Assembly (NCBI GenBank): GCA_048213135.1
Contig: PS015054.1
Coordinates: forward strand, 257,812 to 321,811
Direction of reading: 5' to 3'
Length of the DNA: 64,000 nucleotides
DNA from: Reclinomonas americana ATCC 50394
Taxonomy: Eukaryota
Part shown: piece after piece, positions 3,443 through 64,000 of the stretch
Layout of the letters: each line of letters begins with the position of its first letter
Position numbering within the stretch: the stretch's first letter is position 1
Program-made: the position numbers and the translations under genes
The notes under the pieces: model-generated
What the model was told of the DNA's origin: nothing
The model's input: only the letters and a program-made list of their open reading frames with translations
Database searches by the model: none

Positions 3443-5379
3443 TCAGTCCGTGGTCAGCGAAAACATGGCGTCGGGGAGCGTCGAGCCGAGGGTGGTGTTG
3501 TGTCGCACCACATCGGCCAATCGGATCGGCTGCTGTGGCTCTTCTCTGCTGCCATTCACACGCGAGCGACCGAGTCCGCGGAGCAGCACCAAGCGGAACG
3601 TCTCGCCCACTAGAGCCCCGCGATTCGGCTCCAGCAATCCGCCCGAGGCAAGGTCACTGCAGGTGATCGGGAAAAAGTGAGGAAGCGGGTTGTCAATGTG
3701 GATAGCAGCAGCAGCGGCACGCAACACTTGGTCGATGGTGACAAAGGTGGAAGCCTGTGTTGCATGTCAGTGGATGGAAGGAGCCATATTCCAAGTGTCA
3801 CGGACGCAACGAGAGCAGATGCAAACTTGGGAGACAAGTCGGCGAAAGACGAGTACCGCGGCAGTCCCAGCGACTGGCGAACATCGTTGAGCGACGGCAG
3901 TGCATCGCCGTGCATCGCCAGCAACTCGGTCAGCACCAGACGAACGGGGATCTATGTCGCCCATTCAATAACATTGCAGAAGCTTGAGATTACCACGCTC
4001 CCACACGCACGCAACTGGACTGGAGGAGGTGGACAGGCGGCGAAGAATGCCGTTGATTCCGCTCTCCACCACCGACCGCACGTGCCACTCGCTCGACGCA
4101 AATCCTGCACACCGATGCAAGAAGTCAAACTCTCTCCTTCAAAATTCCATACCGCCAGGCAGCGACTGATTGGCGCAACTCGCCGCATCCAGACGACCAG
4201 CCACACGTAGAGCACGCAGCACCACGGCCAGCGCCCGCTGCGTCAACGGCGAGTTGTCGCTCGATTTTCCGCCGGCAGAGCCAATGACGGCCGGCAACCA
4301 CTCGGAAAAGGTGATTGCGTGCATGGCGGCGACAGTGGAGCGCCGAGCCTCCACAAACACCTTGTCCTCGCTCCACGACGGGTTCGCCCAGCGAATCAAC
4401 GCCGCCTGCCGATTGTGCTCACGCACCCACAACGTGTGCAGCGCCACACCTCCCGGACTCTCCGACGCACGCATGTCACCGCTGACAAACAGCGACTCGT
4501 CCTCCATCGCTTTGCTGGCGTCGTCTGACACGGCGCCCTCCACGTTGCGAGGCAGCATGTCGCCAACCGCGGTCGTGTCGCAGCGGAGCCGACCACTGCC
4601 ATCGGCCGCTCGTCGCAATCGCGTCCGCTCGGCCATGCTGCCGTAGATCTGCAGCGATCGACCCGACGATCAGCCAGCCAGCCAAGATGATGAAACTAAA
4701 GGAAGGCGACATGCGCACCTGACTGCCATCCAGCAGAGGGGTGGGGGCGTGCTGTGGTGGCTTGTTGCCGGCAGCCGTAATGACGGGACTGTTGGTGCAG
4801 TCGTCGTGAGTACGCAGCGATGGGGAGGTGGGATCGGCGTCCCTCGGAACGCAACGCAATGTCATGCTCGAGGAACTCGGCCCACTGCCACACCTGCAAG
4901 TCGACAGGAGGTGAGACGAGGTGAGGAGGGCACGACGATCACGACTTGAAGAATCACCATGGATGGAACGCCACCAACACAAAGCATCGGCAGCAGCGGT
5001 GCCTCCAACAGTGCATTCCTGCGTGGCACCTCACTGTGCACGCCCTGCTCCGCCTGCTCCTGCATCATCAACAAGAGCGCGGGTTCTCTAATCATCCGTT
5101 CACTGCGACGAGAAAAGTGGCTTGAGCGCGATCCACGAGGATCAGGCGATCTCTCTCTCACGCACACACTTACCTCTCACTGTCACCAGCGTGTGGTGAG
5201 TGTCGCAACACGGTTCCAGAAGCTGAGCAGAAGAGCATTAACACAAAGTTTCGATCGCGATCGCTCTCACTCTCTCTCCTCGCGACGCAACTCTCAATCG
5301 AGCTCGCCTCCACTCCACGCAGCGCCACGCACATAACCACTAACATCGCCACCATCACCGTTGCTGTGCACCTCTGCAT
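3443..5379 (-). CDS. Secreted peroxidase-cyclooxygenase (animal heme peroxidase) family protein, degenerate
   Basis: Signal-like N-terminus MQRCTATVMVAMLVVMCVALRGVEA; WQWAEFLEHDI; GDMRASESPGGVALHTLWVREHNR; FVEARR..ITFSEWLPAVIG; LPSLNDVRQSLGL; DLASGGLLEP..GALVGETF. Confidence 0.8.
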
Positions 5380-5620
5380 CTCCTTTGCTTCTTTTCCTTG
5401 TAGTCTTCTTCTTCTTCTTTGGTAGAGGTTTTCTTGCTTGAGCGGCAATCTAAGTGCCGTCTATTCTAAAGAGGGAGCTGGCGGCGAGGAGTGCGCTGTT
5501 GCCTCCTTTGATCCAACCCTCGCTCTCACTGGCGCGCAATCAACAACTCTCTCACGCCGGAAGAATTCTTGTCGTGTTCGGATTATCCTAAATGCTGATA
5601 TCGTCAACTTCGTTTTTTGT

Positions 5621-10728: not shown

Positions 10729-10805
10729 TTAATTCCAACCAGGGAGAGAGGACGAGCAGGACCTCCTGCCACCACCTCCGATTGTGTCAGGTGCACTCCG
10801 TCACA

Positions 10806-16696: not shown

Positions 16697-19085
16697 TTAA
16701 TCAAAGTCGGCGTCGGGATGCTGTCGCACCCACTCCTGGATCGTGTTGCGCAGTGCAATGTTGGGATACAGCACCTGCAGAGATGCGGAGAGTGAGCGAC
16801 GATGATATAATCATCACACACGTGAATAATGTGTACCTTGGAGTCGAGAGGCAAATTAGTTTTCGGGCTCCTGCACACGACACGGACTGTTACAAACATG
16901 GCACATGGAGCAACACAGCGCAGATGGGGTGAGCAACCCACCGATTATTCCTCGCCAACCAGGCCTCGATCTGCGCCCGCTCATACGTGTGTCTGCGGCA
17001 CGCACATGTCAGTCGACAGGCAGGCAAGCAAAGCAAGCACTATACGACAGACCCGTCGCTGCATGTGACTGGATCTTTCATGATCTGCGCACAGAGCGGC
17101 AGTCAGATAAGGAGTCACGCAAATACACACCACAAACAAGCGAGCGTTGCATGTACGGTACGCACTTCACGAGTGATGGCACAGCGGAACTCGTCGGGTA
17201 CAACGGGTCGTGCTGGTGGTGGTGGCGGCGGAGGCGGTGGTTGAGGCGCTTGTGCCGGCCGTGGTGGCTGCGATGGTGCTCGTCGACCAGCACCCGGATC
17301 AGGAGCAACAGATAACAATGCGGCGCCAGCCGGCGCGCCCGGTGGACCCGGCGGACCAGGTGGAGCATTGGCTCCGTTCTGCGTCCCGACAGTGAGAAGA
17401 GAAGAGAAAGCAAGCAAGCAAGCAGTGGATGGAGCTCTGAAACTCACCCGATGACTCGGAGGCGGTCCCAGCACAAGTGGCGCGGCGACGGCCGCCGGAC
17501 CCAAACCGGCCACTGGCACTGGATTGACGTACGCAGCACCCTGAGGCGGCGGTAGCACTTGCACCTGCGCCACAGACGACCATGAGCCCACATTTCAGTG
17601 CGTTGTGTGTGGTGGTGGCCTGAGAAACGCAGCGCAACTCTGTAGTCCGTGTTGGGGAAGCGATACGACGGTTCAAGCATCTGGAACGACACGATTTTCT
17701 TGTACTGGTCGGGCACCTGTGTGTGATCACGCAGCCGATGAGGGGACGGCGTCCACCGATAAAGACCAGCGCAAGACTGCAAGACCTCCATGAGCGCCTG
17801 CTTGGCAAACTCAATCTCGATTTTCTTGCGCTTCTGACGTGCTTCCGCTTTGCATTTCGCGTGCTCCACAAACTGAACGACTCGTTGAGCGGTGCGCACA
17901 TAAATGCGGACCTTGCGTGCACACAGAGGGAACACAAATTACGCACCTGAAAGTTGTCAAACTTTCGTGCCGGCAGGCCATCGTCAAAGTCGTTCATGAT
18001 ATCCCACGGTCCGTCACCAACACCAATGCACACGATAGAGAGCGGGTATTTGGTGGCTGTCGGATCTCAACGCGTCAACACCGCAGCGGAGTGCACAACC
18101 GTAAAGCAGACAGAGGCAAACCTTCCACAATGGCTGCGACGGTCTCCTCCACGCAGTCGACCGCACCTGCCCGAGAGCACATCAGTCAGCACACCGGAGA
18201 AAACAATTCACAGCTTCGCCATCCCCACCCCACCACTGTACCGTCACATATGATGAACAGGATGGAGTATCGTCGTGTGGCACGGATAACGTCCAGCGCG
18301 GCGTAGATGGACGGCGCAAAGCTGGTCGGCCCAAACATGGTCACATCGCGAACGACCTGTGCGTAGCGCTGCATGATCTCCGGCAGACTCGAGCATGGTC
18401 GGCGATCCTCTGTCAACGAGAACACGGCTTTCGACTGCAGCATGCCAACACACACATTCTCAGGAACGCCGTCACATGCGATGCGCTTGTGTAAGGAAAA
18501 CTCACCCCACTGCGCCGATCGCCAAAGCCGAACACAGTGATGTTGGAGGAGGCCAGCGGCAGCGATGTGCTGAGCGCACGAATCACCTGAGAGCATCGGC
18601 GAGTGAGACGGAATACAGGAGGCGGACAAGGTGCAGTCGCTCTCCGCAGCGATTCACCTCTTGATACGGATTGAGCGGAGGATCGAGATCGTCCTCGGCA
18701 GCCGGCTGAATGAGATGGAGACTCTTGCCACCAAACGTGCGCTGCCCGTCTGTGTGTGCGTATGCACATGCGTGTGAGTGATGCAGGCACCCTCAAAAAG
18801 CGGGCAGCCGTTGTCGGCATGCAACGACGCTCCGCAACTTCCCGAGTTGGAAGCCGTAAAGTCGATAGAGAGGAAGAGGTCGGGAGACACGTTCATCGTG
18901 CGCAGCTCATCCTGAATGTCAGTGAGATCCTTGAAGCGATCGCGAATCAAATCACGATGTGTCGCCGTGCTGTGTGCACACACGCACGCAGTGAGTGAGT
19001 GGGAGGCGAGCTAAGCAAGCCAGCGAGCGTGAGCGATGGAGGCAGACCGGACGAGTGTCGGCTGCTGCGATGAACAGCAACCCAT
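16697..19085 (-). CDS. RGLG-like copine (vWA) protein with C-terminal U-box; N-terminal MGCCSS acylation motif
   Basis: SIDFTASNSGNGQRTFGGKSLH; NPYQEVI; FGFGD; GPTSFAP; ICDG; YPLSIVCIGVGDGPW..FDDGLPARKFDNFQ; ALMEVPDQY; U-box [57 protein letters not shown]. Confidence 0.92.
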
Positions 19086-19232: not shown

Positions 19233-22200
19233 CTAATCAAAGGCCGGTGAGAACGACGAGCCACTGGCACCCTTGTTGGCGGCGGCACTGAGACGCTCGA
19301 CCAGCTGCTGCGACAGCTCCTCCAGCTCCGTCGGTGACAACGTCGACTGCAGCTGCTTGATTACTCGATCAACGTGCGACACTGCAGAGGACGACGGTAA
19401 GGAGAGGGGGTGACGAGCAACAGAGGCGCACGTGCAGAGCGCGCAACATGCACTGGACGAGGTGGGTTGCAGGCGGCGCTGTGCATGCATCACCGAACAA
19501 AGTCAGCGATATTGTGCAATCCGCCTATGCACCCATGCACACACAAACACAGAAGCAAGCACGCGACAACGTACCGTATTCAGCTTCCGGCGCAGCTGCT
19601 CCGGCAAGCAGCCCTGTGCCGCATCGACAAAATCTTCCATACCGCGGCCGACGCGGTACGCCACGTCACGGCGCCAGTGCTCCCACGTCTCACAACGACC
19701 CCAGAACTTGGTGATGACGGTGACAATGTCTTTGAAGTAGGAGGCGTGGGGGCTCTTCGTTTTCGCCGTGCGGATGATAGATTCGTACATGTCCCGCGCC
19801 TGTTGCAGTTGTTCGGCCTCGGATCCCTCCTGCGTTCGGCGATAGAAGCCCTTGTCAGGCAACAACAACAACAACTTGCACTGGCCGATAGGCATGTACA
19901 GCTGACAACACGCACCCGATAGGTTGTCAACTTTGTCAACAGACCAGCCAGTTTTGCCGAGGTCTCACGGAACGCACTCACTGTGTGAAAGAACGGCCAA
20001 CGCGTGAATGACGGCAGCCAACGGTCACCAGCGTTGAAAACGAAAAGGGAAAGACTACGCAACCAGGGCCCCAGCGACTGCGCAGATCATACGACAGCTG
20101 TGCGACAGCGGCATCCTTGGGCACTAAGATGATGGAAGCAACACACGTGAGGAGACGAACACGCGAGGAACCAAAGAAAGGGTGAACAATACCAGAGGCC
20201 GGTCGATCAGGACCTGGCATGCCCAAGTCGACACGAGCGTTCTTGACGCGTTTGATGAGACTCTTTTGAGTGGTTTTCACGGAGTCCTCGATGCTGCGCA
20301 TGAGCGGCTGCATTTGCACCTGGAACACGCGGCTCAACTCGGCCTGCACGGACGACAATTGTGAGAATGAGTGTTGATCACAGGCTCGAGAGCGCAGCAA
20401 CGCACCGCTGCATCCTTTGATGCCTTCTCCATGTTGTGCTGTGCAGACATGCAAGTGACACGTGAGACTCGCAAGAAGGGAAGCAAGCAGGGAGACGTCG
20501 CTTACCGATGCCGGTCCGTGTCTTTTGATAAAGTGCCCATTGAGCACCGCCACGGCTTCGATGAGCTGTTCCGCAGCGCATGAAGCGCAGAGATGAGGAA
20601 GTGCTTGGAAGCAGACAGACTGCACTCGGCCACACTAACCGCAGCCTTCATGGCCGGCGCGACAGTTGGCCACGTGCACAGCTCGGTCAGATGCGTCTGC
20701 AGCTTGAACACGCCTGTGTGCGCGTGCGCGCGGCAGTGAGTGCGTGAAGCTGTCGACTGCAGAACCACACCCGGCGTATCGAGCCTACCAGCATCCACCA
20801 GAACCTGCTTGGACACCTCACGGCTGAAAATGTACTGCATGACATCGGCCATCGAGCGCAACACTTGCGGTACCGACTCAGGGATCGGCACCGACAAGAA
20901 CGCTCTCTCCACGGCATGCATCAACTGTGCCCATGCGCCCACCAGCGGTGAGCATTCTACCAATGACGGGTCACAATTTCCTTCCGTCTACACACACATG
21001 CACACCTGCTCAATGTCCACCATGCCCTTGTCGAGCTCCTGTCGGTCGCTGCGCCACCAGCGCGACATGGTGCTGTGCACCGGCTGGCGAATGCTCTGTG
21101 TGTGCGCAATGTATAAGTATCATGGCAGCAACACACAGGGCACACTTATCGCGGACGTACCGCCAAGCTGGTGTCCAGCGCCGCACCAAAGTACTGCTCG
21201 ACCTCGGTCATCTGTTTGGCAGCTCATTTGTGAGCATCATCGAGACAACGCACGAGCATATTCTCGTCTCACAGCACCATCTTCATCATTACGCCGTTGA
21301 TCTTGCCGTCAATGCGTTCCACCTCCAGTGCGCGTTGGATAAAGCCGTAGCGCGACTCCGCCATCTCCGCGCATTGCTTCGACTGCGTGTCGAGCATGTC
21401 ATCCAGCAGGCCTTCTCGCAGACACAGGTCACGAATCGATCGTGTGTAGAGATCGAGGTCTGCCGTCGCGCCAAAGCGCAATCGGTACTTGGCCAGCAGC
21501 ACATCGGCACACACGTAAATGTTCTCAATAATCTGCACTTGGCCGGGTGAGACATGGAGGGAAAACAGAGACTGGTACAAATACTTACGCACCGGAACCG
21601 TGATGCAAAGCAACTGCATGGCGAGAGAAGCATTAGCATTGATCCCAACAAGTGGACACCAATAAAACGCAACGCGAGAGTCCGCATCGGCGACTCCATA
21701 CTTGGTCAGCGTCTGCGTCTCCTCCTCCATCAACCAGTGTCGCTCGCCGAAATCCATGTCCATCATGCCGTGCACGCGCACCGACCGAGTGTGCGTTTCA
21801 CGATCGCGCAGCTGGCGATAAAAGGCGAGCAAGTTATCGACGCCTGCAGAGCACAGGTGAGGAAGGAGCTGGGGAGAAAAGAGTGTGACAAGGGAAACAC
21901 CCCGAACCGCCGACATTGATGATCTGGAACTCGCTGCCGAGCATGGCCGTGTACAACTGCGCACAGTTGTGAGATATCACGCTTCACGGCAACGATGGGG
22001 GACACAAACCTCCTCATCGAGGGCGGGAGTGGCATCGACGCGAGCCGGCTCAATATCGTCCGGATCAAACAACGTATCGCGTGACGTCGGTGTCGTCGCA
22101 GGAGCCACGTGGAGACCGCGCTCGCCTTCCACCAGCAGGAACTGTCGACGGAAACCCTCCACGCGAACCAGCATGTCTGACACGCGCACACAAACGCAAA

Positions 22201-25200
22201 AGGTAAGTTCACATATTTGCTCCCGCAAGAACATCGCCACCAGAAACACCATACCCAATCGCAATCGCTCGCGTGAAGCTTCGCCGAAACGAGAGACGTG
22301 CACCACTTCGCGCATGGCCTGTGTGCAACGCATCAGTGACTGAGCTGGAGAGACGAAATTAAAAGCAATGCCGGCAGTCACCTTGATGCTGGAGGTGTCC
22401 GTCGGGTGAATGAGCACTGCAGCAACGAAACAATCAGCAGGTGTCGACAGCACACGAGATGAGTCGCCGCAACACGCAACTGACGTGAGCTCCCGGCAAG
22501 ATGGCGAATGCGTCGCAGTGAGTGGCAAACACAAAGAAGCATTTCGGTCGCATGAGCATGAGCTGTGCGGCAGCAGTGAGCGGGGGAGGTGTCGACGATG
22601 ACCAACAAATGCAAGTGTGCACACCCGTCGGAACATGTCCACTGCCAGTGCGGTATTCTGCACACACGGCAAAAATGATGAGTTGAAGGGCAGCCACGAG
22701 TAACAGGAGTCCCTCTACAGACTCACCAAGTGCGCCTCTGGTTCCTCCACGAGGAAGAGAACCATGTCGTCCTGCACGGCAGCGAGTGTGAATCAGATAA
22801 AAACACACGTGAGGATTGAGATATGGACTGAACAAGCAGAAACCTTGTTCGTGTTCAGAATCTCCCACAGGGTGGACACTGCACTCGAGCTTGAGAGTAG
22901 CACGACAAGGAAGACAAGGAGACGACAAAAGACACCACGCACCAATGGACCGTGTGCCAGAGCTCATCTCTTCAATCGACGTCATGGGCGTCAACTGGCA
23001 AACGCCATGCGCCGCCGGTCAGTCCATGTCACACAAAGATAACAGCAAGCTCGTGACACGCACCAGATTGGCACTGGCCGGTAGCAAGCCTACTCGACCT
23101 TCGCGCACCGCAAACAGCATGTCCGGCCACAGCGGGTTGATCGAGTTGAGCTCGTCGATTACCTGATCGCCCTCCGCAGCCCAGCGACCAAACACCTTCA
23201 GTTCGGAACTCGTGAGATCCTCGACCCTGGCTCCGCGCTCGGCACGCAGCATCAGACTGCGATGGCCAGGCCAGTCGAGCCTGTGCAAGAAAACACAAGC
23301 ATTTGAGAGGGCCAGGGCGACCAGCAGCACAAGACACAGTGCCCACGCAACTGCTTCAGCAGCAGACTCTTGCCGCTACCGTTGCTGCCGTACAGCGACA
23401 CACAGCTGGCTCCCGAGGCGTTGGCGTTGAACTGGAACATTGCCGGCTCCGAGTCGGAGATGCTCCAGGAAAACGTCGGCTGCGCAGAGCACGAGTTAGG
23501 ATCGGTGCACAGATGAGCACAACGAATGCATGACGCACGTGGGCACGGAGCTCCAATCGCAGCATGTCCACACGGAAGACGCCAGGTTCCGCCGCAATTG
23601 GAGTGAACCAGATGCGGTCACGCTCAATGGCCTCCTCGCGAATCTCCACATCGGCTGCACGCGGTAAATCGTGAGCGCGAGTGAACAGGAGAGGCAGTTA
23701 GGTCACACGAGCAAACGAACCAAATATGAGCGGATACTGCATGCGCCATTCGGGTCGCGTGCGCTGCGTGAGCATGGCCATGCCGACTGCATATACAGAT
23801 GCACATCGTTAGATGCATACAACTGGCGACAGGTAAGCAATTGCATGAACTCACTGCGCTCGTGGAAAAAGTCGGCCGGCGACACCCCCACCGGCGGCAC
23901 CACCTTCCAGTCGGCGTTTGCCGGAATCAGAGTGGCGCCCTGGTACAACACTTTGAAGCGCGTGGTAGCGATGCGCGAAATGCGGACGTCGGCGGGACTC
24001 AGCGCCAGCGCCACCATGTGGCACTGCGGATCATTCAGCAAGAATCGTGCGACGTCGGCCGACGGATGGCTGCAAAAGTAGGCGTTGATGGCCGGCGAGA
24101 GGATCACAAAGTGCTGCGAGGTACATCGACCGACGAGTGAGTCTCTGGTGGCGGTGCAGCGGAGGGCAAATGTGGCGTACAAACCTCCTCGGGCGAGTCG
24201 TACGCCAGCACGTCGTTGATGAGGCGCAACCACGGCTGGAGCCAGTCGCGCTGACGTGTCAGCTGCGCCGCACTCGCCAATACCACTGTCCACAGCTCCT
24301 CGGGTGGCTATGCACAGACGGAAACAGTTAATGAGATAGATGGAGGTGGAGGGATCGCAGCGGGGGAGGAATGAGCGGAGACAAACCACGCTGGTCAGCA
24401 GCAGACTGATGCTCTCGTCGTCAGCCACAACGTCCTCCTCCTGCACTGGAATCGGTCGCGGCGGACTGCCAGCACCAGGTGCAGCGGCAGCAGACAAACT
24501 CGACGCGCCGCCCGTCACCGTGAACACGTGCTTCATTTGGCGGAACAGGTCGCCCAGCAGACGCGCTACCCCCAAAAGATAACAGAGTCAGCGCAATGAC
24601 CACCAACTCACGCTGCTGCGTTGCCATACAGACCGGGGAGTGCCGACGCCGGCTCGCCAAAGGCGCGCAGCACCAGAGACACCATCGAAACCAAGGTCTT
24701 CAGCGGCAGCTTATTTCCCGGCAGCACACGCAGCACGTGCGCCGCGGCCACGGCCGCCAACGACATTTGTGGACGGCGCTCCCTGTGGCACACAGCACTC
24801 ATAAACACACACACACACACGCAGAGCAAGTGCACGCCACACAGGCACCCTCACTTGAGTTTCAGCGGATTCAGGACCTGCTTGATCGCCTTGACAACAG
24901 CAGCCGAAATGTGCTCGGCACTGGCATGCGCGCCCGGCGGACCGGCCTGCAACGAACAACACACACACACACACATAGGTCACTCATCCTGCATCTCTCC
25001 TTCTTCCATCATACTACAAGCACGCAACCACTGAGCGGCCGTCACCATCAATCAGCGCACGCAGCTGCTCAGCCGACAGCGTCGTGATCCTCGACAATTG
25101 TTCCTGTGTGGTGGGCCAACACATCAGTGGAAAAGCCAGGGACGAGACACCAGCGAGAAACACAGTCAGTCTCACCTCAGACACGCTGCACAGCTCACAC

Positions 25201-39324: not shown

Positions 39325-39368
<44 letters not shown>

Positions 39369-45359: not shown

Positions 45360-48300
45360 ATGTCGCGCAGCGTGCCCACCTGCCGCTCGGCCGTGACCCG
45401 ACTCTTCGCCTTTTGTTGTTTTCTGATCGCCATCGGTAATGCGCTGGTGTCTCACTCACTTGTACATACCTGTTGCTGAACGAGTGTGTTCTCTCACAGG
45501 CCTGCTGATTAACGATGCCTCGGCTAATCTGGCCAACTTCACGCGATCTCTGAGCATGAGCAACAGCAGTGGCACATACCCATTCATGCGCGCAGAGTAC
45601 CCTGGCACCCAGACCATCACACTCAATTCCACCAACAACATTTTCCAGTTCCTCACCAGCGATACTGTCACTCTTCAGTATGGCGTCAACTCGTGCGGAG
45701 GAGCGTCGAATATCGCCACCTCGAGCCCGACAGGCGGCGGTTCTTCACTGACTGTCACTCTGCCGACCAACCTTGCCGCCGGCTTCTACTCCGTGTGGTG
45801 CGACAGCTCATCACTCTCCCCCCTCCTCTCTCTCTGCTGGAAAGGTGGTCTCACTCCCCTCCCACCATGACACGCAGCTGGAACGGCAACAATACCGTGG
45901 GATCTGGACCGCTGTGGATCAGTGAGTGACCATCCCATGCGAGTTCGTCTGGACGCACAACTCTTTTTTTGACACACACTCGGCACAGATGCCACCACGC
46001 AGAGCTTCACCATCTCTCCGGCCACCATCATTGCCGAGACAGGAACGAACTCCATGACGATCACGGGAGAGGGTCTGACGATCAATGACCAGATCTTGCT
46101 GGAGCTCGGCACCACGTGCAGCTTCAGCTCGTCTACCGCGCGCCGTGTGACCATGGATCCGGGCGCGTACGTGCAAAAGACCATTGGTGGCAGCAACGGC
46201 GCCCGCACTCTTGTCGGCTACATGCCCATCGACCTGGCAGCCGGCACCTATGCCGTGTGGTGAGCGAAATCAATCAAAAACGAATAGACGCACTCGGGGT
46301 TCAGATGCTAAATACGTCTCGCACAGCGTCGAGTACGCCAACAATGACCCTACTCCGTCGTGGAAGATCTTGCAGGTTGAAAGTCTGGCTCTCTACACTG
46401 TCGGTAAGAGAGAGCTTCGCCCCTCCAGTGGGCATCTGTTCTACATTTCTCAAATCCTTCCCAGTGCCCGACTTTGCCGGATTCTCGCCGACGAGTCGCA
46501 CAGTGGGTCAATCCATCACTGTGACCGGTCATGGGTTAACCATCAATGATATCGTCAACGTGGAGGCCGGTACGACATGTACGGCCGCCGGTGCCGGCAC
46601 GGCGTTAACCATTAGTACCATCAGAGGTGGCGCAGCGGGAGCCCGAGAGATCTACGGTCTCATCCCCAACTCGGTGGCCTCGGGTACCTACTCTGTCTGG
46701 TACGTGCAGCATTCCGTAGAACTACACACCTGCGCACTCTGTGACTCATGTGTATGCATGTGTACTGTGAGAATAGTATCAAATACGTCACGGCGTCCAC
46801 ATTTGTCAAGGTCGGCACCAGCCAGCTGCTCGTCACTGCAGGTGAGAAGCAAAGGTCGCTGCAGCTCCGTCTTGTTTAATCCATGCACACACACAATATC
46901 GTTGCAGCACCGGCACCGAGTCCGTCGGTGATCTCCGTCAAGGCTGGCGTGACGTCGCAGACTGTGGTGCTTACCACGATTGGCACAACGGTGTACACGT
47001 CGACATCGGCGCCGGCCACCACGTTCAGTCTGTTTGCCGAGTCCACGTGTACGGGAACGTCAACAACTACGTTGACCACAGCCACACTGGGAGCGGCAAA
47101 CGCGCTGACGCTGGTACTGAACACGAGTGCGGAAACAGCGGCTATTATTCGCTGGTTGTGCTTTGATGCCGACGGAGCCAGCACCTCTGCGTCCAACGTC
47201 GTCATCATGCCCATTCGCATCTGTTTCGTGCAACTTGTTGTATGTACTTGCTCCTCTTAATCCCTGTTACGTCACTCATGGCTCTTTTGATGGCACGCAG
47301 TCACGGCGACAAGCCTTGAACCGGCAACAATGACGCAGGGTCGCGCGACAACCTACCTCACCATGACCGGCACCAACTTCCTTGTGCCCAACGGAGGCGC
47401 CACGACGGGAACCAATCCGGCGTCGCCAGCCACTCCCGATGCGCCCTTCTTCCTGTCGCTGTCGGCAACATGTGCCACGGAGGACTACCTCGCCAATGCC
47501 AATTTTGCGCTCTACAAGACGTCATCGCTGGGTGAACACCTCATTTTCAGTGTCACTACGGCCACCGTTACGGCTGGCGCTTGCACAATGGCAGTGTCGC
47601 AGACGTACAATGTTTGTGGACGGTGCGAAACTCTCTCCGCCTCTTCTGTGTCTTTGGTGTGGAAAGAGAGACTCACCGCAGTGGCGCACAGATTCCAGGA
47701 TGGCACGTTTGTCACAATGGGTCCCACATTCACCGTGGTCAATCCACCGCTGCCGCTAGTGGCCTCCATGACGCCGATTGCCTTGTCACTTGGTGTGGCC
47801 ACGCAGTTGACGCTCATGGCAAGCAATCACGCCTTCACCAGCTGCTCCCGCTTCAAGCTCGTCGACTATGGTTCCGATTGTGCCACGGCCGCCAACTCTG
47901 GTGCGCGCGTGCTGTCACACCGCCCTTTTTTGCATTCTTTCTTCGCTCGTGCATTGCTCACCGGCAACTCTCCCAACCACAGCGGCCTTGTCGGTGACCT
48001 CGTACACTGCTGGCATTCTCGACGCATCGTCGTGCTTCGCCGAGTCTTCCGGGTGCGCAGTCTACACGATTTCAGTCACGGCTTCCACCGCAGCCAGCAC
48101 GCAGCTATGCGTGGCCACGACTCCAACAGACACATACACGTCTGTGGACGGCGAACTGATTACGGCCGGTGTCATGGTGCAGACTTCCAGTGTCGCCAGC
48201 TACTCGACGCCCACTGTTGCGTATTCTCTCCCTCCCCCCTCATCGATCTGGTTGATATCCCTCTATCATACACTCACCATGAAAAATCCCGCAGTTGGCG

Positions 48301-48956: not shown

Positions 48957-49036
<80 letters not shown>

Positions 49037-50142: not shown

Positions 50143-52784
50143 ATGAGCTCACACATGGTCACCGATGTGCGCTCGCACGACTTGGCGGGTGAGCACCAGG
50201 AGCAACAACAACAGCAGCAAAAGACCGGCGAGAGCGCTGCTGTGCTCGTCACCGACAAGCAGCGATCAAATGCGAATTCCTCGCGATACGAGGTCCTCGA
50301 GTACATTTCCGAAGGTGAGATCGCATTCTCCTTCGCCTCCGTCGCAGTGCCTGTCACCACTGGGTGCACATCTTCTCTTTGCTGTGTGAGTGAGTGAGGT
50401 GGTTGCATTGCGTTGGCGTCGTTCACACCCAGATCTGGGTGTGATGATGATCGTCTTTCATGCATGCGACGAGAGAAGAACAGCGGGCCTTTTTCCGATG
50501 TCGGATTCACACACATCGCCTTCCTTCTACCTCTCCATCCTTCTGCCACCCCGCTCACCCGTGCACTGTGCAGGCACCTACGGCATTGTGGTCAAGGCCA
50601 TGGACTGTGCGACTCGCGAGGTGGTGGCCATCAAGCAACTGAAAGAGGCCGATCGTCGTTCCACTCCACACCCTCACCACCGACACCGTCGCGATCGGGA
50701 TCGGGAACGCGCTGCGCAGCACGCCGAGCGCGTGGCTCGCGAGTTCACCATTCTGCAGCAGCTGCAACGTTGCGCGCGCACGTGTGTGTGTGCTGATTCT
50801 TCTTTGAGCGTGTGTGCTGATGTGAGCGACAGATGACAATGTGGTGATGCTGAGGGACGTGTTTCGCCGCAAGGACCGCCTGCACATGGTGTTCGAGTAT
50901 GTGGATCGGAGGTGGCGTTTTCTTACCCTCGTGTTGTTATTGTTGCTGTGCCGGCTGCTCACCTTCTTTGGCATGCGCAGCCTGATGGACCTCCTGCGCA
51001 AGTACCCACAGGTGCCCCACTTCTCTCTCTCGCTCGCTCTCTCTCTCTTCGTCGTGCAATCCGGCATGCTGACTTGAACATGCAGGGTTTGCCTCTGGGT
51101 CGCGTGCGCCGGTACGTGAGGCACCTGCTGCAGGCGTTGGAGCACTGCCACAAGCACGGCATCGTGCATCGCGATGTCAAGCCGGAGAACGCACTCGTAT
51201 CGGTGGTCGGCGACACGCTCAAGCTGTGCGACTTTGGTTTTGCCAAAATGGATTCGTGGCCCAAGAGCTCCAACAAGGCCCGTCCACACACTGCGTACGT
51301 GGCTACTCGGTGGTATCGCGCTCCGGAAATCCTTCTCAAGTGCGTGAATGATGCATACGTACACTCGCTCGCTCGCCCGCCGGCGACTAAACAATTCTCA
51401 CCAGTGACCAATACGGGCCCGCGGTCGACGTGTGGGCCGCCGGCTGCGTCATGGCAGAGGTGTGTGTACGCGTGCAGCACACACAAAAGACTGTCCACGG
51501 TTCTCACCACCTCCTCGTGGATCACAGCTGCTGGATGGCAGACCACTCTTCCCCGGCGACTCCTCCATCGACCAGCTGTACTGCATTCAGCGAATGCTCG
51601 GACCACTGACATCACGTCAACTGGATCAGTTCCACGCCCACCCAGCGTACTCGCGCTACACTTTCGGCGACATGCGACGACCCGTCACACTGGCACACCG
51701 GTTCCGCGACAAGCTCAACAAGGAGGGCATCGATTTGCTGGAAGGCCTGTTGTCTCTCGATCCACAGCGACGCCTGACGGCCACCGAGGCACTGGAGCAT
51801 CCGTTCTTTGCCGACGACCACCTGCCAGCGGTGCACCAGCGCTCGTGCAAGATCCATCCCGTGTCGTGGACGTCGCCACCTCAATTCGCACCACCACCGC
51901 CGCCACCACCGCCATCAACAACGACAACCACCACCGCTGCACACCACCACGGTCAGGCACCGTTCCGCCGTCGCTTGTCGCCGCGGCAATCGGACTTTGC
52001 CACCGCGGAAACGGCTTTGACGACGGTCGCGGACAACACCGCCACTTCCGGGTTTCGTGTGGTGGTGGAATCGGTGCCGGCGGCGGGCAGCGGAGTGTCG
52101 CGATCCTTGGATGCGGTGATGCCGGGCCAGCTGATGACATTGCGACCGACTCCGCCCTCCACTCGCACCACTCTGTCGCTGCTGCCGGAGGTGGCCGCCT
52201 CGCGTGCTCGCCGCGCAGGCGCCACTGCCCACCAGAATGCCGCCATGGCCGCGACTGGAGCAGCAGCTGCCGCCGCGGCCCTGCACCACATTCAGTCGTG
52301 GTGCCCGATCTCGTCGAGCACGCTGGCCTCGCAGCCGGCGCCGATGATGACAGCAGTCGCGCCCTCCGGCACCGTGCACGTGCGTCGTCACCTGGCACAC
52401 ATGGCGCCACTGGTGACGACCGTCGTCGCCGGCGGCTACTACAGCGACAGCCGATCGTCCGAGTACGGCAGCTCCGACGACGACAATCTTACTCACGCGC
52501 CCTCACTGCTGATGCGCGACGAGGAGAATGCCCTGCCGGTGCCACTCAACAATGCCTTGTGAGTCGTTCTGCGTCGTCGCTCGGACTTGCACCGTTCGTC
52601 AGCCCACTCATGATCACTCCCTCACAGGACCAAGCACAAGTCAATGCCGCAGATGATCGGCAAGGGCGCCGCACCACCATCGTGGCTGCCACCACTGACG
52701 TTGCCGCCGCCCGTCGGAACCTCGTGCTCGATGCCGGCGAGCCCACGGGCCGCCGCAGCATACGCACCACACACGGTGCGATGA
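50143..52784 (+). CDS. CDK-like (CDKL) CMGC protein kinase
   Basis: ISEGTYGIV..VAIKQ; LQHDNVV..FRRKDRLHMVFEYVDRSL; HRDVKPEN; LCDFGFA; TAYVATRWYRAPE; PLFPGDSSIDQLY. Stop at 52562 if the last intron is not used. Confidence 0.93.
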
Positions 52785-52964: not shown

Positions 52965-55169
52965 ATGTCGGAGCCAGGAGGCGGTGGTAGCGATGCACCC
53001 CCGGCTGCAGCAGCAGTCGAGGCGCCTGCACCTCCGTCTTCTTCGTCCGAGCCCGCCGCACCTGCTGCGGTACCGGCAGCGCCGGAGGTGCTGACTGGCG
53101 GCAAAGTTGAGTGGTCATTGCCACTTGCACACACACACTCTCTCTCCCTCTTTCCCTTCTCACTCCCCTCGTCGCTCTCTCGTTGACTCATACACACACA
53201 TCTCCCTGACTCATGCACACTCGCTGCACATGGTGCATCATCCACACACACTTGTCCTCGAACACGCACGCACACACTCATTCTCTCTTCCTCTCGCACG
53301 CAGTTCCTGGCCAGCTTGGACTCGCCAGTGCAATTCTTTCGCGGTGACAACGAACAGCTGGAACAGCGACTTGCGCTCCTGCTGCAAGTGTTGAATCACG
53401 CAGAACACTTGTCCGCCGCCGAGCATCGCGCCCTGGCCACTCTCTTGTTGCCACTGAGCACCGAGTGGCGCAGCTTGCGTGCAGAGGGCAAGAGTGCTCG
53501 TCGAGGTGCGCATGCGCGCACACACATATACACAAACAATGTGCAGGAGGAATACTGATTGGTGTTGGTGATGAAATAGATGCTCTGCCAGTGCTGGGTG
53601 TTGTCGGTGACTACTTCATGTCGCGTGTGCGTCACTGCTGTGAGGCTGGCGAGCGGGAGCAGTGGGACGACGAGTGCTCGTGGACGCTTCGTGTGGCGGC
53701 GGCGCAGGTGCTGGGCGTGCGACTCAGCAGCCCGGCAGTGACATTTTCCGACGCCTGCAAGGCTGCGGCGGAGCTATTTGTGTTTCCTGTGGATCCAGCC
53801 GATCGCCGCCTGCTGGAGACGCATCGTGCGAGCGGAGTGACGAATACGGAGAGTTGCGCGCGCACTCGTGTGTGTACATGAGAGCGATGGTTGTTGTTTC
53901 CGTGGCTCACTGCAGCGTGTGCAGGCGATCGATTTGTGGAGAATGCCATTCGCAGTTTGCTCGCCCCGCCCCGTTCCTCTGGTGGGCCTCCACCGTTCCC
54001 AGCATCTGGATCGGCAACGGGCTCCTCGTCCTCTTCGTCTTCTTCCTCTTCCTCCTCCACCGCGTCGTCGACAACAACGACAGCAGCGGCGTCGGCGGCG
54101 TCAACAACAGATGCACCGCCGTCCATCGACGAGTTGTACCTGTCGCTCATGTTGCAGGAGCGCGACGCAGTGACGGCGTTCCTGCAGGCCTCGCGCATCT
54201 TCCTTCTCGGAGTGGACACGGCCGTCGCCGCCGATTTGAACTTTGTTGCCGATGTCATTCTTTACTGCAAGGACTACTTTGATCATCGTTTCGTGCCGTC
54301 ACTCTCTATCCCTCTCTCTCTCTCTCTCTGTGTCCATCTCATGCCTCTTGCGGCAGGTAACGAGGGGAGCGTGCAAGCAGTGCGCGCCCTGGTCGATGCC
54401 CTCTTTGAGGATCCCCTCATTGTTCTGTGCTTTGAGGCGCAAACTGCCGAGGCTGTCGAGACGGTTCGGGCACGCCACGAGTCATCCCTCTCTTCTTGCT
54501 GTTGACGCACAGTTGTGTCGTGCGACCGCTGCAGGTGTTCGGTCGCATCAAGCAGATTGCCAGTGCCGCCACGGGCCTGGGAGCTGATGCCGCCTGCTTC
54601 TCCTTGCTCACGTTTGTGGCCGCTCGCTGCCTCAGCACGTATCTGATTACGTCGCCGCGCACCGAGGGCGATGACCCAGCGGATTCTGCCGCCGTGCAGC
54701 CGCCGTCGATATTTGAGAATCGCCTGCTGCACGTGTGCTACGATGCACTCATTGAGGCGCTGCGCCACATGCCGCGGGTGAGTTGACACTCCATCCATTT
54801 ACGCCCACCGCCCCCTCCTCATGATCACCACTAACTTGCTGTACGAAAGCAGCAGCCGTCGCAGATGATGGAGGAACTGGCTGCGGCCATGTGCACGGAT
54901 ACGCATTCGCTGTTCGACATTGCCGTCCACATTTATTTGCGCTCGGTTCTTGACGCATCGCAGTCGGTACCCGCCGCACCACCGGCCCCTGTTGCCGCAG
55001 CACCGGCCGCCACAGTCGCTGCAGTAGCACCCGCGGCACCGCCGGCTCCTGTCGCTGCAGCGGCAGCAGCACCATCCGCTGCGGCGCCAGTTGCTCCCCC
55101 GGACGTGGTGGCCATCTCCGAAGCCAGTTGCGACCACGCTCATTTTTTGTCTTCCGCCTCGGCACTTCT

Positions 55170-55216
<47 letters not shown>

Positions 55217-58200: not shown

Positions 58201-61200
58201 CACTGCGAGTTGTGTTGTGTGGGTTGTCTCTGCGCTTCTTGTTCTCCTCTCATGCATCGTCGTGTGACAGTCGCTTCTGGCGGTGTGCACACGCGTTGTT
58301 GGACGTCAGCCGAAAAAGACTGACGGAGCGGGCGCGTCTGCTTCACCGGCTGCGGCCGACAGCGGGTCACCAACCAAGACGACATCAGCGCAGCCGGGGG
58401 TACCGGAGAGCACACTCGAGCGCCTCCTGCACGTGCTGCTGGGACGAGGCGCCGATGATCGTCTCTCGGCTGCAGACGACCAGCTGCGCGCCCTCACCAA
58501 CGCGACGGCCGCTGCTCTGGGCAAGACCAAGGCCCGCGCTCTGTTGGAGGTGACATGCCACCGCCCTCTGCGTGTGTGATGAGTGCGTGTGTGTGACTCT
58601 CCTGTTGACGCAGGCGATATTGAGTGTGGAGGCGGCGGAGCGTACGTTGGGTCTGCTGGTGGAGCATTCGGCCGAACTCGAACCGGCGACCGTGACAAGC
58701 GGCGCAAAGGAATGCCTGGCACACCTGATCAGCGTGGCCGAGTCGCAGCCGACTGCTCTTGCGCTCTACTTTGGTGACACTCACGAATTCGAGACGCTCG
58801 GCGACGAGTCGTTGATCATGTCGTGGGTGTCTCAGCGGCCCGAGAGCCAACTGCTGGACATTATCGGCTCGGTGCTGGTGGACAAGCAGCTGTCGCACTT
58901 GCATTCCGACATGCTCACATTGGTCCGACACTTGTCCGGCTCTGGTGAGTGCACTTGCCAATGCGCGACATTGCGTGGTATTGTTGCTCATTCGGGCGCA
59001 TGTGCCTCTCTGCTCCAGCTGGCAGCCACGTGCAGTCGCTGATGGTGACCTTCCTCATGAACGAGGAAATCTTGAGTTGCGTGTCGTTGGCAGCGGACAA
59101 GGCATATCCTCTCATGTTACTGAGCGTTGTTGTCTCGCAGCGAACTTGCTGCGCCAGACGATTGTCTCGGTCGCCGAGGAAGCGCCAGGTGCCATCACCC
59201 CGGAGGCTCGATGTGCGACATTCCGAACGGAGCTGCTCAACTGCCTGCGTTCAGCGCTGCTCTCGAGTGGCTCCGCTGACCGGTTCGTCGTGCACGGCTG
59301 ACATGTGTTTTCTGTTCTGTGCACTTATTCTGGTGCTGTTGCCTGTTCATTTCAGCGCCGGTGGTAGCGAAGCTCCGGTTCCAGTCGCCGCCTCCAGTGG
59401 ATTGGTTCCGGTGTTCCTGACGTCTCTCCTGTCGCTGGTCAGCGGCAAGTGTTTCATGACGTACAAGGAGCTGCGAGTTGCGTGCTCGTACTTGCGCGTG
59501 CATGCGTGTGTACATGCATAGTCGGTGAAACTGAACACCGCACAGGACTACTGCGACTTTTTGTTGTCGGTCAACTTTGCCGCCGAGCTTGTGAAGCTTC
59601 TGCAGGCCATTGCTAATTCCCTGCTGGCAAATGCTGAGGCGACAAGCGCTGCCTGGCTCGCTGCGGTCACCGCATTGTCACGCGTGTGCAACGAAACTGT
59701 GCAGTCGGTGGCGCCCGCCGAGGCTCCCAAGTCTCTGGCGGCCGCTGCAGCCGAGGGCAAGGAAGACGGTGCTGTGGAGATTGTGCGCACGTCGTTGTTT
59801 ATCTGTGTGTTTTGTATTGATGTTGGCGATCATGTGCAGACATCGCGGAGACCATTGTGGACTCGGATAGCACCGGCGATGAATTTGAAGACATGTTCGG
59901 CGCACCCACCCAGGTGCCAGTCGCACCGGGACAGAAAGTGGTGAGGCGTTGCTGACTGGTTCTTTGTTGGAGATTGTTGATGCTAACAGTGGATGGATTC
60001 TTCGCGTGCACAGCATCATCACGGCGGAGCCATGTGCACGTTCGCCAGCACCGGGCAAGAGTACTGCGAGCAGTCGTGGTACTACTGCTACACCTGTGGC
60101 CTTGTCGGCAACAGTGGCGCGTGCACTGCGTGCGCCAAGACATGCCACCGTGGGCACGATGTGGCGTACTCACGTACGTCGTCGTTCTACTGTGACTGCG
60201 GCGCAAACTCGTGTGCGGGCAAGGGGCAGTGCAAGTTCTTCCCGAGTGGTGCGCCGGTGGCTGCGTCGGCGCCCAGTTCAGCCAAGTTACATCTCTTGCG
60301 CGCGCTTTTCGCTTGCTTGTTCTGCTCTCTGAATCCGTCGTTTCCAATTGTTGCAGAACGACGCCCACACTGACGTCTGTGAACGCTGCGCCCTCATCAT
60401 CGTCGTCCTCCTCGTCGTCGCACGCGCATCGCGTTGTTCGCAAGATTGCGCGCTCAGCCAGCAAGGAGGTGTGCTGAGATGTGGTGGCAGTTAGACACAC
60501 CTCGTCCACTGTGATTTGACATGTGATGATGCTTGCAGCCTGCCGCCAAGGAACCCGCAAGGGAGGTGCCGGCAGTGACGGCGGCGTCGGCGGCGGCAAT
60601 CAAGATCGGTCCACCAGCCAGTGCGCTTGCGCATGTGGCCGCCGGGCTGTTGGGGGCGTACTCGGATAGCGACGATGAGACCTCGTTCGATCCGGTGGTT
60701 TCTGGACGCGGCTCGTCGACCTCGACAACCACCGTCATCACTGATGCGGTCAAGGAGCAAGTGTGCGCTGGTCTGGTGGAGACGGCTTTGGTCGACAAGC
60801 TGGTGACACTGTCGGAGATTGTGATGAAAGCCTACAGCGACAGTCGCGTGCAGGGTCGTCCAGGTGCGACTCACATTGTCCGCTGTGCTGCGCCTGAGTG
60901 ATCCCTATTGACTCCCAACAACCCATGCAGAGGCTGCGGGCGAATCACTCGACGTTATGAGCACCACGCTGATCAACGCCACGGCCTCCAGCAACTCGGT
61001 GTTCACACGTCGGCAGTTCTTTTCACCGGGCACGTTCGACGTGTCGTTCCGCCAGGAGGCCGGTCGCGATCACCGCAACCTCAAGAAGCTGCTGAGTGCC
61101 GGTCGTCTGCTGTTGTCGTATGTCACGGCCAACACCGACAATGTCACAGCCATGCTGGAGCAGGACCAGGTCTCGTGCACACTCTTCTCTCTCTGTGTGT

Positions 61201-64000
61201 GCACTGTGTGCTCTGTTGGTGGTTGCTGACGTGCGGTGCTGCAGGTACACCTATTCCGGACGAGCTCGCTGTGTGCCACCTCGACCGATCACCGTGACCG
61301 ATCGGCGGCCCAAGCGCTTGCCGCCTACAAGCTGCCGTACGAGGCCTTCTGGTTGCAATTCCATCCCTCGCGATCCGAGTTCCTCGCCGCCTGCGGTCTG
61401 CGCAACTGCTCGGTGTTGGTGCTGCACAACAATCGTGTCGAACGCGAGGTGTCCATCACTCTCGGTCTCGACATGGTGGAGGTACGATTGTTTGTGGGGT
61501 GTGTGTGTGTGTGTGCGCGCGCGCGCTCCTTTTGTGTCTCCAACACTGGTGTTGCAGGAGCCGGCCTACCTTCTCAAGTGTTTCTGGTTGCGTGGCTCGG
61601 ACACGCAGCTGGTGGTCGTCTGCAACCGCTTCGTCAAGGTCTTTGACCTGGCGGTGGACACGTTCTGCCCGAAGCACAACTTTGTTGTGTTGGAGGAGCC
61701 GATTCGCGACGCGACCGTGGCCGACTTTGGCGATCACCGAGTCATGTTTGTGATGACTGAGAGCGGCGCAGTGCTGCAGCAACAAATGTTCGACATTGTC
61801 GACGGCGATGGTGGACCGTGCATCATGTCGTGTACCGTGGAAGTGCCGCGCACGGGTTCTCGGTGAGGCCAGTCGTGTGCATGTGTGTGTGTGCGTGTGC
61901 GTGTGTGTTTTCTGATTCGTATTGACCTGTATCAGCAATCCGGGCGTCGCACTGTACTACCACCCGTCGCTGCAGTTGCTGCTGGCCACATTTGCGCAGG
62001 AGCGTAAACTCGCTCTGCGACTTGACGTTGCGTTGCACCTAGTCTCTTGCTGTCTGTCTGTGTCTGTTGCCGACTGATTCAGTTCTGCGCTGCAGCCTAC
62101 GACTTGCGAGGTTGTCGGTTCATTTGAGTTCCAGAACGGTGACGATGGAGAGAGCGCTGTGGCCAAGGATGCGCCGCTGTTGCACTTTGGTGTTGTTGAC
62201 GAGTTCCCGTCGCTGTTGCTGGCTTCATCGCTCAAGAACAAGCGGCCGTACGCCATGTCGTGGACCGGCGACAAGTTGGTGGTGCAGCCACTCACAGTTG
62301 CGTGCTGAGTGAGCGAGTGTGTGCGAGAGCAGCAACTCACTGTGCGCATGCAGACGGACGAATCTCCGGCGTTCGGCTCCGTGTGCCCTGCCATTGTTGG
62401 TGGGGTGCCGTGGACCATGGTGCTGCACGAAGATGGCTCGCTTAGTGCCTGGCGACTTACTGATGTGCGACTGCGAACTCTTCGCGTCGGCGTGCGCTCT
62501 CCTCACCTGCTGGCGCGCAAGAGCGAGTTCTTCTCGCGCGCGTTTGCCACCATGGCCAGAGAAGATGTGCGTCTACGTAGTCATCGGAGCAGCAGCAGCT
62601 TCTGCTCGAAGAGTGTCCTCATTTCTCGAATCGCTTGCAGAGTGCCAGCGAACCGTCGATCGACGCTTTCGAGCGCAGCCAATGCGACAAGGGCAGCATT
62701 GTGTACAGCGGCGATTTCTCGTCCGTGTACAGCGCCTCGCAGCTGCGTAGACGTCTGACCAGCAATCCGGAAGATGGACACGTTGAGTCACCGGTGGAGC
62801 GACCGACGCTGCACATTGCGTGCCAGAAGGCCGATTTGGTAAGTGTTCACTCTCCTCTTGTTTTGCACTCTCGGTTACTGAAGCACCCCGATGTTTTGAG
62901 CGCAGGTAATGGTGGGCGCTCGAGTGTTCCTGGGCCACGGCTCACCCAACAACATTCCGTCGTACATTCAACTCACCAACTCGGGACGCATGATTCCGAC
63001 GATGCAAAACTGTGAGCGCTTCTACGACGTGCCGCTCTCGCTGAATGAGATTCGTGAGGCAATGAGCAACGGCAACAAGGTTTGGCGTGTGCGTGACGAA
63101 GACTTGACGCACGAGTACGCATCCTCAACTGCCCCATCGCAGTTTTCTCTCACGTTTGGTCCGCCACCCACTGGCAACGCCGGCTGGATCAATGCGGTTG
63201 ACGTGTATGTGCGTGCGCGTCCCGAATTCGAGGCGTCCATCGGTGCGAGCTCCGCGGCATCTCTGCAGCACGGTAATCAAACGCACACACGCGCGCGTCT
63301 GTTGTTGTGGTTCGATGCTGACCACGATTCTCAGCGGCGGCCACGGGAACCGTAGATCCGCATCTGCTGTCTCTCATTCGAGACACAGAGCCGCCTCGCG
63401 AGCTTGCCTCGCTCGTCGACTGCGTGAGTGTCGTTGGTTCGGCGCTGTCCGTCGTACCGCGCGCTGCCACTGAGGTGCGTGCATATATATTCAGTGAACG
63501 TGAGCGTGCAGGTTCGCCGCTCACTGTGCTGTGACAGGCTGTCCGCGAGCGTGTGAGACGTCTTGGTGCGCGTGTGCTGGGCGACCCCGAGTTTGACGCC
63601 GTCGCCGCCGTCATGAAGCGTGCACTCTTCTTCCTGCCCTCGGGTGGCGTCTCCGTGAGTCTGCCCGAGCTCAAGGCCGAACTCGGATTGGCCTTTGTTG
63701 ATGATGTGGCACGGGTGCGTAACGAGCCACCCATCCAGCATTCTCTCTCACGCCTGTCTTCTGATGTGTGTGTTTGTGCGCAGTTGTCTCGTGCGCCGCT
63801 CTCCGTCGGTGATCTCGAGGCTGCCGTGCTGGTCCTCCGCAAGGTCAGTGTTGCCGCCGGGTGTGTGTGTGTGTGTGTGTGTATATCGTTGCTTCTCACC
63901 GAGAGTGTGTGGTGTCGCAGGCATGCAGCCGCGGTGTCAACGTGGTGCACTCGTTCGCATCACTGCAGTACGTGCTCGATTCGTACACGACCTTGTGTCA
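52965..64000 (+). CDS. UBR4: UBR4/BIG/p600 giant E3/E4 ligase, 5' part (runs off the window)
   Basis: UBR box CTFASTGQEYCEQSWYYCYTCGLVGNSGACTACAKTCHRGHDVAYSRTSSFYCDCG; propeller EFLAACGLRNCSVL and WLRGSDTQLVVVCNRFVKVFDL; DOC-like VGARVFLG..IPSYI..GRMI..RFYDVPL. Confidence 0.92.

Follow-up and report, generated by a model that had tools for sequence, protein, structure and literature searches.

A minority class of GTTGCGT introns, with a donor signal apparently displaced by one base, in a 64-kb window of Reclinomonas americana

The window analysed here is a 64-kilobase (kb) stretch of DNA from Reclinomonas americana ATCC 50394 (contig PS015054.1, positions 257,812 to 321,811), with a G+C content of 58%, in which introns opening with GTTGCGT appear to make up a class of their own, at about 10-15% of all introns. 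From their sequence, the members look like real and ordinary U2-type GT-AG introns of some 68 nucleotides (nt) whose donor signal is displaced by one base, W/GUUGCGU, where the slash marks the cut. With high confidence we take them to be true donors, cut before GTTG. Pairing between U1 small nuclear RNA (snRNA) and these donors one nucleotide out of register would explain the class, and as a full account we consider it rather probable. The analysis is based on this single window, on protein homology and on statistics.

Genes were predicted with a purpose-written two-strand hidden-Markov model. A donor-blind first pass, given nothing beyond GT..AG, the codon usage and a uniform penalty per intron, returned 137 introns, and the commonest donor hexamers were GTTGCG and GTGCGT, with nine each. 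Training added a three-component donor mixture, an acceptor matrix and a length density. The trained parse contains 214 introns with a median length of 68 nt, divided by donor pattern into 98 canonical (GT[GA]NG[TCA]), 32 GTTG[CA]G, 75 other and nine TG-repeat introns. Unprompted, the mixture settled on the classes (C)AG/GTGCGT or GTGAGT (weight 0.59), NNA/GTTGCGT (0.24) and a TG-repeat class (0.17). The last of these is probably spurious. (TG)n/(CA)n runs lure the gene model into GTGTGT donor calls that are probably false. Such runs are frequent in introns and between genes (for example at 1464, 25324, 39527, 57101 and 61503). Intron density is extreme, with about 214 predicted introns in 64 kb and 21 in the 1105 codons of the GH38 gene.

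GTTGCGT is both over-represented in the window and oriented with its genes. The two strands together hold 37 copies against 16.19 +/- 4.44 expected, a number reached in none of 100 dinucleotide-preserving shuffles. Relative to the predicted genes, 30 copies are sense, six antisense and one intergenic in the trained orientation (binomial p=7e-5), and 27, seven and three, respectively, in the donor-blind orientation (p=8e-4). Among the donor-blind introns of 45-120 nt, 7 of 73 start with GTTGCGT, the top-ranked donor hexamer. The background is 68 GTTG[CA]G among 4497 sense GT sites (1.5%), which gives the donor-blind excess a binomial p of 1.2e-4; a check of donor against background frequency, proposed in an earlier, sequence-only reading of this DNA, therefore comes out as enrichment at donors (7/73 versus 1.5%). 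Discrimination by the donor-blind site score is modest, with scores of at least 20 at 12 of 30 sense GTTGCGT sites and at 599 of the 4467 remaining GT sites in sense orientation (p=3e-4). The trained model uses 24 of the 30 sense sites as donors.

The sequence-only reading had listed 29 donors reading GTTGCG or GTTGAG as one class. All 29 carry the hexamer on the strand given (22 GTTGCGT, three GTTGCGC, one GTTGCGG and three GTTGAGT), and its hand count of the base at -1 (A 14, C 7, T 6, G 2) is exact. The trained model recovers 21 of them as donors; five of the eight that it misses are well scored locally (18838, 33901, 39548, 39866 and 50769). Six further GTTGCGT donors were added to the list, at 4855, 5291, 25028, 27677 and 43989 on the minus strand and at 33177 on the plus strand. 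GTTGAGT is split five sense to four antisense, and the class is essentially GTTGCG(T) because GTTGAGT has no strand bias. The proposed class thus stands for its GTTGCG part, on shuffles, strand bias, the donor-blind parse and homology, and is not supported for its GTTGAG part. The estimate of a tenth or more of all introns agrees with 7 of 73 donor-blind introns, 32 of 214 trained ones (15%) and five of 21 junctions pinned by homology.

Junctions were also scored against profile hidden-Markov models built from homologues of three genes, the GH38 alpha-mannosidase, the haem peroxidase and the UBR4-like protein, taking at each junction all frame-keeping, stop-free GT/GC..AG alternatives within 48 nt. 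Of the 45 junctions in the three genes together, the test pinned 21: at 19 the modelled form won by at least 3 bits, and two were corrected. The five GTTGCGT junctions belong to these 21. They come from ten GTTGCGT junctions tested, of which five were pinned to the base (best of 5-40 alternatives by 3.8-6.9 bits) and none was refuted. At all five the protein homology favours GT at +1/+2 with an AG end as the cleaved form. The test is able to say no, because it overturned two model calls in the GH38 gene, replacing GTTGCA at 28211 by GTTTGT at 28256 (+30.8 bits) and the donor at 29794 by GTGCGT at 29788 (+6.9 bits). Junctions that the sequence-only reading had regarded as fixed by conserved motifs fared differently. 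In the GH38 gene both are pinned, GETF/GPTW (31924) by at least 6.6 bits and 29023 by at least 5.6 bits. At the CDKL junction LQ-H-DN (50769) the start of the downstream exon aligned, its first residue to residue 71 of CDKL5 and its second to residue 63 of CDKL1; the end of the upstream exon did not, so the junction is supported, not pinned. Comparison of the CDKL, kinesin, vWA and copine exons with Pfam and PDB gave matches too short or too weak to pin junctions. A UBR-box search returned multi-UBR repeat proteins as top matches, and only the giant UBR4-like proteins were useful, for 61-63 kb alone. Two of the proteins found (P0240 and P0241) carry as many as 20 UBR-box matches in tandem over 1423 residues, an odd architecture unrelated to the gene in the window.

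The class donor corresponds to the canonical 8-mer AG/GTGCGT with one base changed and cut one base upstream (A/GTTGCGT). In the 32 class introns of the trained parse the base at -1 is A in 16, T in 10, C in five and G in one, and the frequency of G at -1 is 1/32 versus 71/98 in canonical donors (Fisher p=7e-13). G is absent from +5, as the sequence-only reading had maintained: this position is C in 29 and A in three, compared with C 47, A 34 and T 17 at the canonical +4 (p=7e-4). T at +3 and G at +6 are fixed by the definition of the class. Beyond them +7 is T in 78% of members, +8/+9 lean towards G/C, echoing the canonical +7/+8, and -2 resembles the canonical -3 (p=0.21). The extra base at +3 is T only. 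GTAGCGT has no sites against the 24 donors of GTTGCGT, and neither GTCGCGT (seven sense, seven antisense) nor GTGGCGT (13 and seven) provides a single trained-model donor. Donors with T at +3 and G at +5 (GTTTGT, GTTCGT and GTTGGT) mostly retain G at -1.

Away from the donor the class and the canonical introns look alike. Median lengths are 67 and 68 nt, CAG is the acceptor in 29/32 and 87/98, and the top branch-like pentamer in both is CTCAC (31% and 28%), with the branch A some 19-20 nt before the 3' end. Intron phases 0/1/2 number 16/9/7 in the class and 39/38/21 in canonical introns, without marked difference. Two other origins were considered and rejected. For an introner or transposon-derived family, the 214 introns were compared with one another by blastn, and none of the 13 short matches joined two class members. 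U12-type introns are likewise a minority class with an extended 5' motif of their own; however, the U12 donor consensus differs from the class donor, and the branch-like pentamer, the CAG acceptor and the length are those of the major class. Among other donor hexamers, GTGAGT is without strand bias (43 sense, 42 antisense), and its complement ACTCAC contains the branch-region pentamer CTCAC; GTTTGT is split 45 sense to five antisense.

How might donors that lack G at both -1 and +5 be read? In the shifted register, G+1 would take the place of G-1, U+3 that of U+2, and G+6/U+7 those of G+5/U+6, so that only U+2 would face a mismatch. The cut site would be set at a later step by the GU itself (U6/U5/Prp8), and not by its distance from the U1 helix. 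The T-specificity at +3 fits pairing of U+3 with A7 of U1, and the loss of the preference for G at -1 speaks for a shifted register and against a bulge with exon pairing preserved. For A/GUUGCGU and the U1 5' end as printed in PMC4856993, the best pairing according to RNAduplex is in the shifted register.

Several points weigh against this account. A standard U1 box makes for a weak shifted helix (-2.4 kcal/mol), and GUUGAGU (-6.8) should be preferred; C outnumbers A at +5 of the class by 29 to 3, the opposite of what a standard U1 leads one to expect. The base at -1 differs from the canonical -2, with G in 1/32 versus 24/98 and A higher (chi-square p=0.013). The trained parse is self-reinforcing and imperfect; it merges adjacent genes and yields spurious GTGTGT donors. 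Three of the 29 listed sites (25905, 53106 and 20063) are weak by local score. Homology gave no decision at five of the ten GTTGCGT junctions, and it overturned 2 of 21 GH38 junctions of the trained parse, including one called at GTTGCA. The place of cleavage and its use are deduced from protein homology and coding potential, and every datum is drawn from one 64-kb window.

The simple version of the shifted register, with a standard U1, fails for the sequence preference because C beats A by 29 to 3. Since the class is nearly restricted to GCGU, a U1 box that pairs with the C at the canonical +4 is proposed instead. U1 may pair with this base through an ACGUAC-type box, which would strengthen the shifted helix for the whole intron class. 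For boxes with G opposite the canonical +4, the predicted shifted helix reaches -8.3 to -10.3 kcal/mol (-8.3 for the ACGUAC type). An altered U1 is plausible and has precedent, and it is not implied by the present data. That such a changed box permits a class of about one intron in seven, in which GU alone fixes cleavage with no G at -1 or +5, is a tentative suggestion on which we would not rely.

It is also conceivable, if rather unlikely, that U1 stays in its normal frame (G+1 with C8, U+2 with A7) and that one U of +2/+3 is bulged. A shift of everything downstream by one base, with U as the only extra base, suits a degenerate U bulge at +2/+3, a register that has been validated in human cells (PMC4856993). 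In this register, however, -1 remains opposite C9 of U1 and the preference for G would be kept, whereas the window class has lost it (1/32 versus 71/98 in canonical donors), and with A at -1 RNAduplex prefers the shifted register. The composition taken alone is compatible with a bulge that lacks exon pairing.

A dedicated second U1 or U1-like snRNA, with a 5' end fully complementary to AGUUGCGU, in line with the snRNA variants suggested by the sequence-only reading, would account for a class so sharply defined (GCGU in 29/32, T at +7 in 78%) and so poorly matched to a standard U1 box. Entamoeba, Mastigamoeba and Physarum are reported to have changed or mixed pairing boxes in U1 (bioRxiv 10.1101/2022.06.08.495308). 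Against this, a single change in one U1 is already predicted to give comparable stability, and the 64-kb window contains no snRNA gene with an Rfam match at gathering thresholds, nor any at E up to 1, where only sub-threshold matches appear, mostly to microRNA families. We consider a second U1 improbable.

It is very unlikely that there is no class at all, and that mis-called junctions and a chance k-mer excess, or an extra T from assembly error, produced it. In favour of this explanation, the gene models were predicted ab initio, trained on themselves and in part wrong. However, the shuffle excess, the 30:6 strand bias, the top rank in the donor-blind pass and the five base-exact homology confirmations speak against it, because these lines of evidence are independent of the trained donor model. 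If the extra T were an artefact the sites would be canonical donors, yet they lack the G at -1 that 72% of canonical donors carry.

A true donor at the GC three nucleotides downstream (GTT/GCGT), giving GC-AG introns after an exon ending in GTT, has little to recommend it. It keeps the frame, and with one residue added it is the runner-up at all five pinned junctions. It loses 6.6, 5.6, 4.4, 6.9 and 3.8 bits at 31924, 29023, 3810, 3725 and 62027, respectively, because the extra residue breaks conserved blocks. It would also require an invariant GTT exon end without G at -1, which known GC-AG sites do not resemble. The least credible proposal, cleavage after the G in the canonical U1 register with the acceptor moved one base, gains from a next exon that starts with G in 9/32 (where protein homology cannot separate it from GT..AG, because the mRNA is identical) and from a Val at 29023 that also fits the profile, but it would require introns starting UU and ending AGN with any N, for which we know of no precedent, whereas in the GT..AG frame CAG ends 29/32 class introns, like 87/98 canonical ones.

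Work by Roca and Krainer from 2009 is said to have described atypical donors in humans with which U1 pairs in a shifted register, and work by Roca and colleagues from 2012 reportedly described bulged or asymmetric-loop U1 registers at 5' splice sites. The human shifted-register sites share with the window class a cleaved GU, no G at -1 or +5, U at +2 and +3, and a consensus displaced by one base. They differ in form (A/GUUAAGU versus W/GUUGCGU) and in number, being a handful, whereas the window class is predicted from sequence to make up some 10-15% of introns. The human sites with a +2/+3 bulge also have one extra nucleotide, a U, between GU and the downstream pairing block. Their number is given as 54-68 among 201,541 human sites, of which the validated noncanonical registers of U1 make up 1.5% in total (Tan et al. 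2016, PMC4856993). The share predicted for the window class is of another order of magnitude. Tandem donors three bases apart (delta-3), such as that of STAT3 exon 21, for which noncanonical U1/U6 registers have been invoked (PMC11162779), are comparable in that GTTGCG holds a GT and a frame-keeping site three bases on; the second site in the window is GC, not GT, and the upstream GT is favoured at 5/5 pinned junctions.

Changes in U1 itself are reported for Archamoebae, where boxes coevolved with donors: ACAAAC with GUUUGU in Entamoeba and ACGUAC with GUGCGC in Mastigamoeba balamuthi (bioRxiv 10.1101/2022.06.08.495308). Mastigamoeba favours +4 C in GC-rich GUGCG-type donors, as does the window, and sets a precedent for a changed box stabilising GCGU pairing. 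The same preprint describes Thecamonas and Micromonas as preferring +4 C with a standard U1, and +4 C alone is for this reason no proof of a changed U1. The Archamoebae show a whole-genome change of consensus, not a second donor class out of register, and GUUGCG donors are not mentioned in the accessible text. In the open-access literature, taken as main texts without supplements, no paper was found that describes a GUUGCGU class or any lineage with many donors in a shifted register. The proposed mechanism is a known one; the novelty lies in an unprecedented frequency and a sequence rule of its own.

Why would such a class matter? Shifted and bulged U1 registers have so far been rare exceptions known from human minigene work. 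If 10-15% of the introns of a free-living eukaryote are of this kind, the choice of the cut site with U1 out of register could be tested on hundreds or thousands of natural sites, and so could the dispensability of the +5 G and of its pairing with U6. If the reading with a changed U1 is true as well, the organism would be a natural system in which recognising the 5' splice site is uncoupled from cleavage-site choice throughout the genome. The class also yields a concrete prediction on U1 evolution, namely the sequence of the pairing box. Gene finders trained on GTNNGT would mis-annotate a sizeable share of the exons in this lineage, and the gene models of the present analysis did mis-annotate exons until the class was learnt. 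The class introns and the weaker candidate sites are collected in Table 1.

Table 1. Predicted introns with GTTGCG- or GTTGAG-type donors in the window, and weak or doubtful candidate sites (window coordinates).
Feature	Coordinates	Strand	Remarks
GTTGCGT intron, haem peroxidase	3657..3725	-	69 nt; after 27-nt micro-exon 3728-3754; beats 10 alternatives by at least 6.9 bits
GTTGCGT intron, haem peroxidase	3755..3810	-	56 nt; beats 5 alternatives by at least 4.4 bits
GTTGCGT intron, peroxidase	3952..4015	-	trained parse; homology without decision
GTTGCGT intron, peroxidase	4789..4855	-	newly added; trained parse; homology alternatives up to +3.8 bits
GTTGCGT intron, peroxidase	5223..5291	-	newly added; trained parse; homology without decision
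GTTGCGC intron, copine C-terminal part	17565..17638	-	trained parse
GTTGCGG intron, copine, SNSG-N-GQRTFGGKSLH	18750..18838	-	89 nt; local score 23.2 versus next 11.7; trained parse chose GTGCCT 18790
GTTGCGC intron, large gene	19382..19447	-	trained parse
GTTGCGT site, doubtful donor candidate	20057..20063	-	best fit 133-nt intron, score 12.2; exon in trained parse
GTTGCGT intron, large gene	21614..21673	-	trained parse
GTTGCGT intron, large gene	22417..22480	-	trained parse
GTTGCGT intron, large gene	23281..23351	-	trained parse
GTTGCGT intron	24947..25028	-	newly added; trained parse
GTTGCGT site, weak donor candidate	25905..25911	+	best local score 4.5
GTTGCGT intron, GH38 C-terminus	27618..27677	-	newly added; trained parse; one homology alternative +3.1 bits
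GTTGCGT intron, GH38	28964..29023	-	60 nt; in-frame TAA; CTAAC branch-like motif; beats 17 alternatives by at least 5.6 bits
GTTGCGT intron, GH38 (MAN2C1-like), GETF/GPTW	31864..31924	-	61 nt; beats 17 alternatives by at least 6.6 bits
GTTGCGT intron, vWA-domain gene	33177..33244	+	newly added; donor-blind and trained parse
GTTGCGT intron, vWA-domain gene	33297..33363	+	donor-blind and trained parse
GTTGCGT intron, vWA-domain gene, GTNLYSALVV/AENEIK	33901..33965	+	local score 15.8; small exon skipped by trained parse
GTTGCGT intron, vWA-domain gene	34352..34413	+	trained parse
GTTGCGT intron, vWA-domain gene	34489..34557	+	trained parse
GTTGAGT intron, kinesin-like gene	39114..39175	-	trained parse
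GTTGAGT intron, kinesin-like gene, TSH-Q-FSADRVY	39476..39548	-	local score 30.6; beats trained-parse GTGTGT 39527, 21 nt downstream
GTTGCGT intron, acidic-tract gene	39866..39936	+	donor-blind parse; local score 30.3
GTTGCGT intron, ankyrin/PH gene	43711..43783	-	trained parse
GTTGCGT intron	43917..43989	-	newly added; trained parse
GTTGCGT intron, ankyrin/PH gene	44720..44795	-	trained parse
GTTGCGT intron, IPT/TIG-repeat gene	48216..48294	+	trained parse
GTTGCGC intron, CDKL kinase, ILQQLQ-H-DNVVML	50769..50832	+	64 nt; local score 24.4
GTTGAGT site, weak donor candidate	53106..53112	+	only a 198-nt intron fits; upstream coding score negative
GTTGCGC intron, UBR4-like N-terminal part	53853..53915	+	trained parse
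GTTGCGT intron, UBR4-like	59076..59140	+	trained parse
GTTGCGT intron, UBR4-like	59477..59521	+	45 nt; donor-blind and trained parse
GTTGCGT intron, UBR4-like	62027..62095	+	69 nt; beats 40 alternatives by at least 3.8 bits; retention -14.5 bits, in-frame stop
GTTGCGT intron, UBR4-like	62297..62353	+	57 nt; in-frame TGA 9 nt in; best alternative keeps donor, other acceptor possible

The class seems to be spread unevenly among genes, which is possibly tied to the age of the gene or of the intron. The haem peroxidase gene (3446-5355, minus strand) has nine predicted introns, five of them GTTGCGT, with its micro-exon lying between two of these; its closest homologues are mostly bacterial or metagenomic (40-48% identity). 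The MMS19-like gene (10806-15289, plus strand) has none of the class among its 21 introns. For the GH38 gene (27523-32236, minus strand) the best protein match has 43% identity, and no close relative is present in the collection searched. Of 80 metagenome loci (L001-L080), 25 were tabulated, and each of these carries its GH38 match as one to three long tblastn pieces (506 to 1119 residues for the longest); the short-exon structure of the window gene is absent from these 25, and the best match has 58% identity. The lineage of the organism thus seems not to be sampled in the protein and metagenome collections searched.

Some smaller observations concern the gene models and the assembly. The copine model (16730-19000, minus strand) contains a doubtful 'intron' of 673 nt and, by eye, seems to run into a short exon like the end of a U-box. 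Runs of N occupy 8642-8823 (182 bases) and 48526-48956 (431 bases), the second within the region of the IPT/TIG-repeat gene. At 26707-27396 on the plus strand lies a small intron-containing open reading frame whose C-terminal exon resembles, by eye, the bacterial nucleoid-associated protein YbaB/EbfC.

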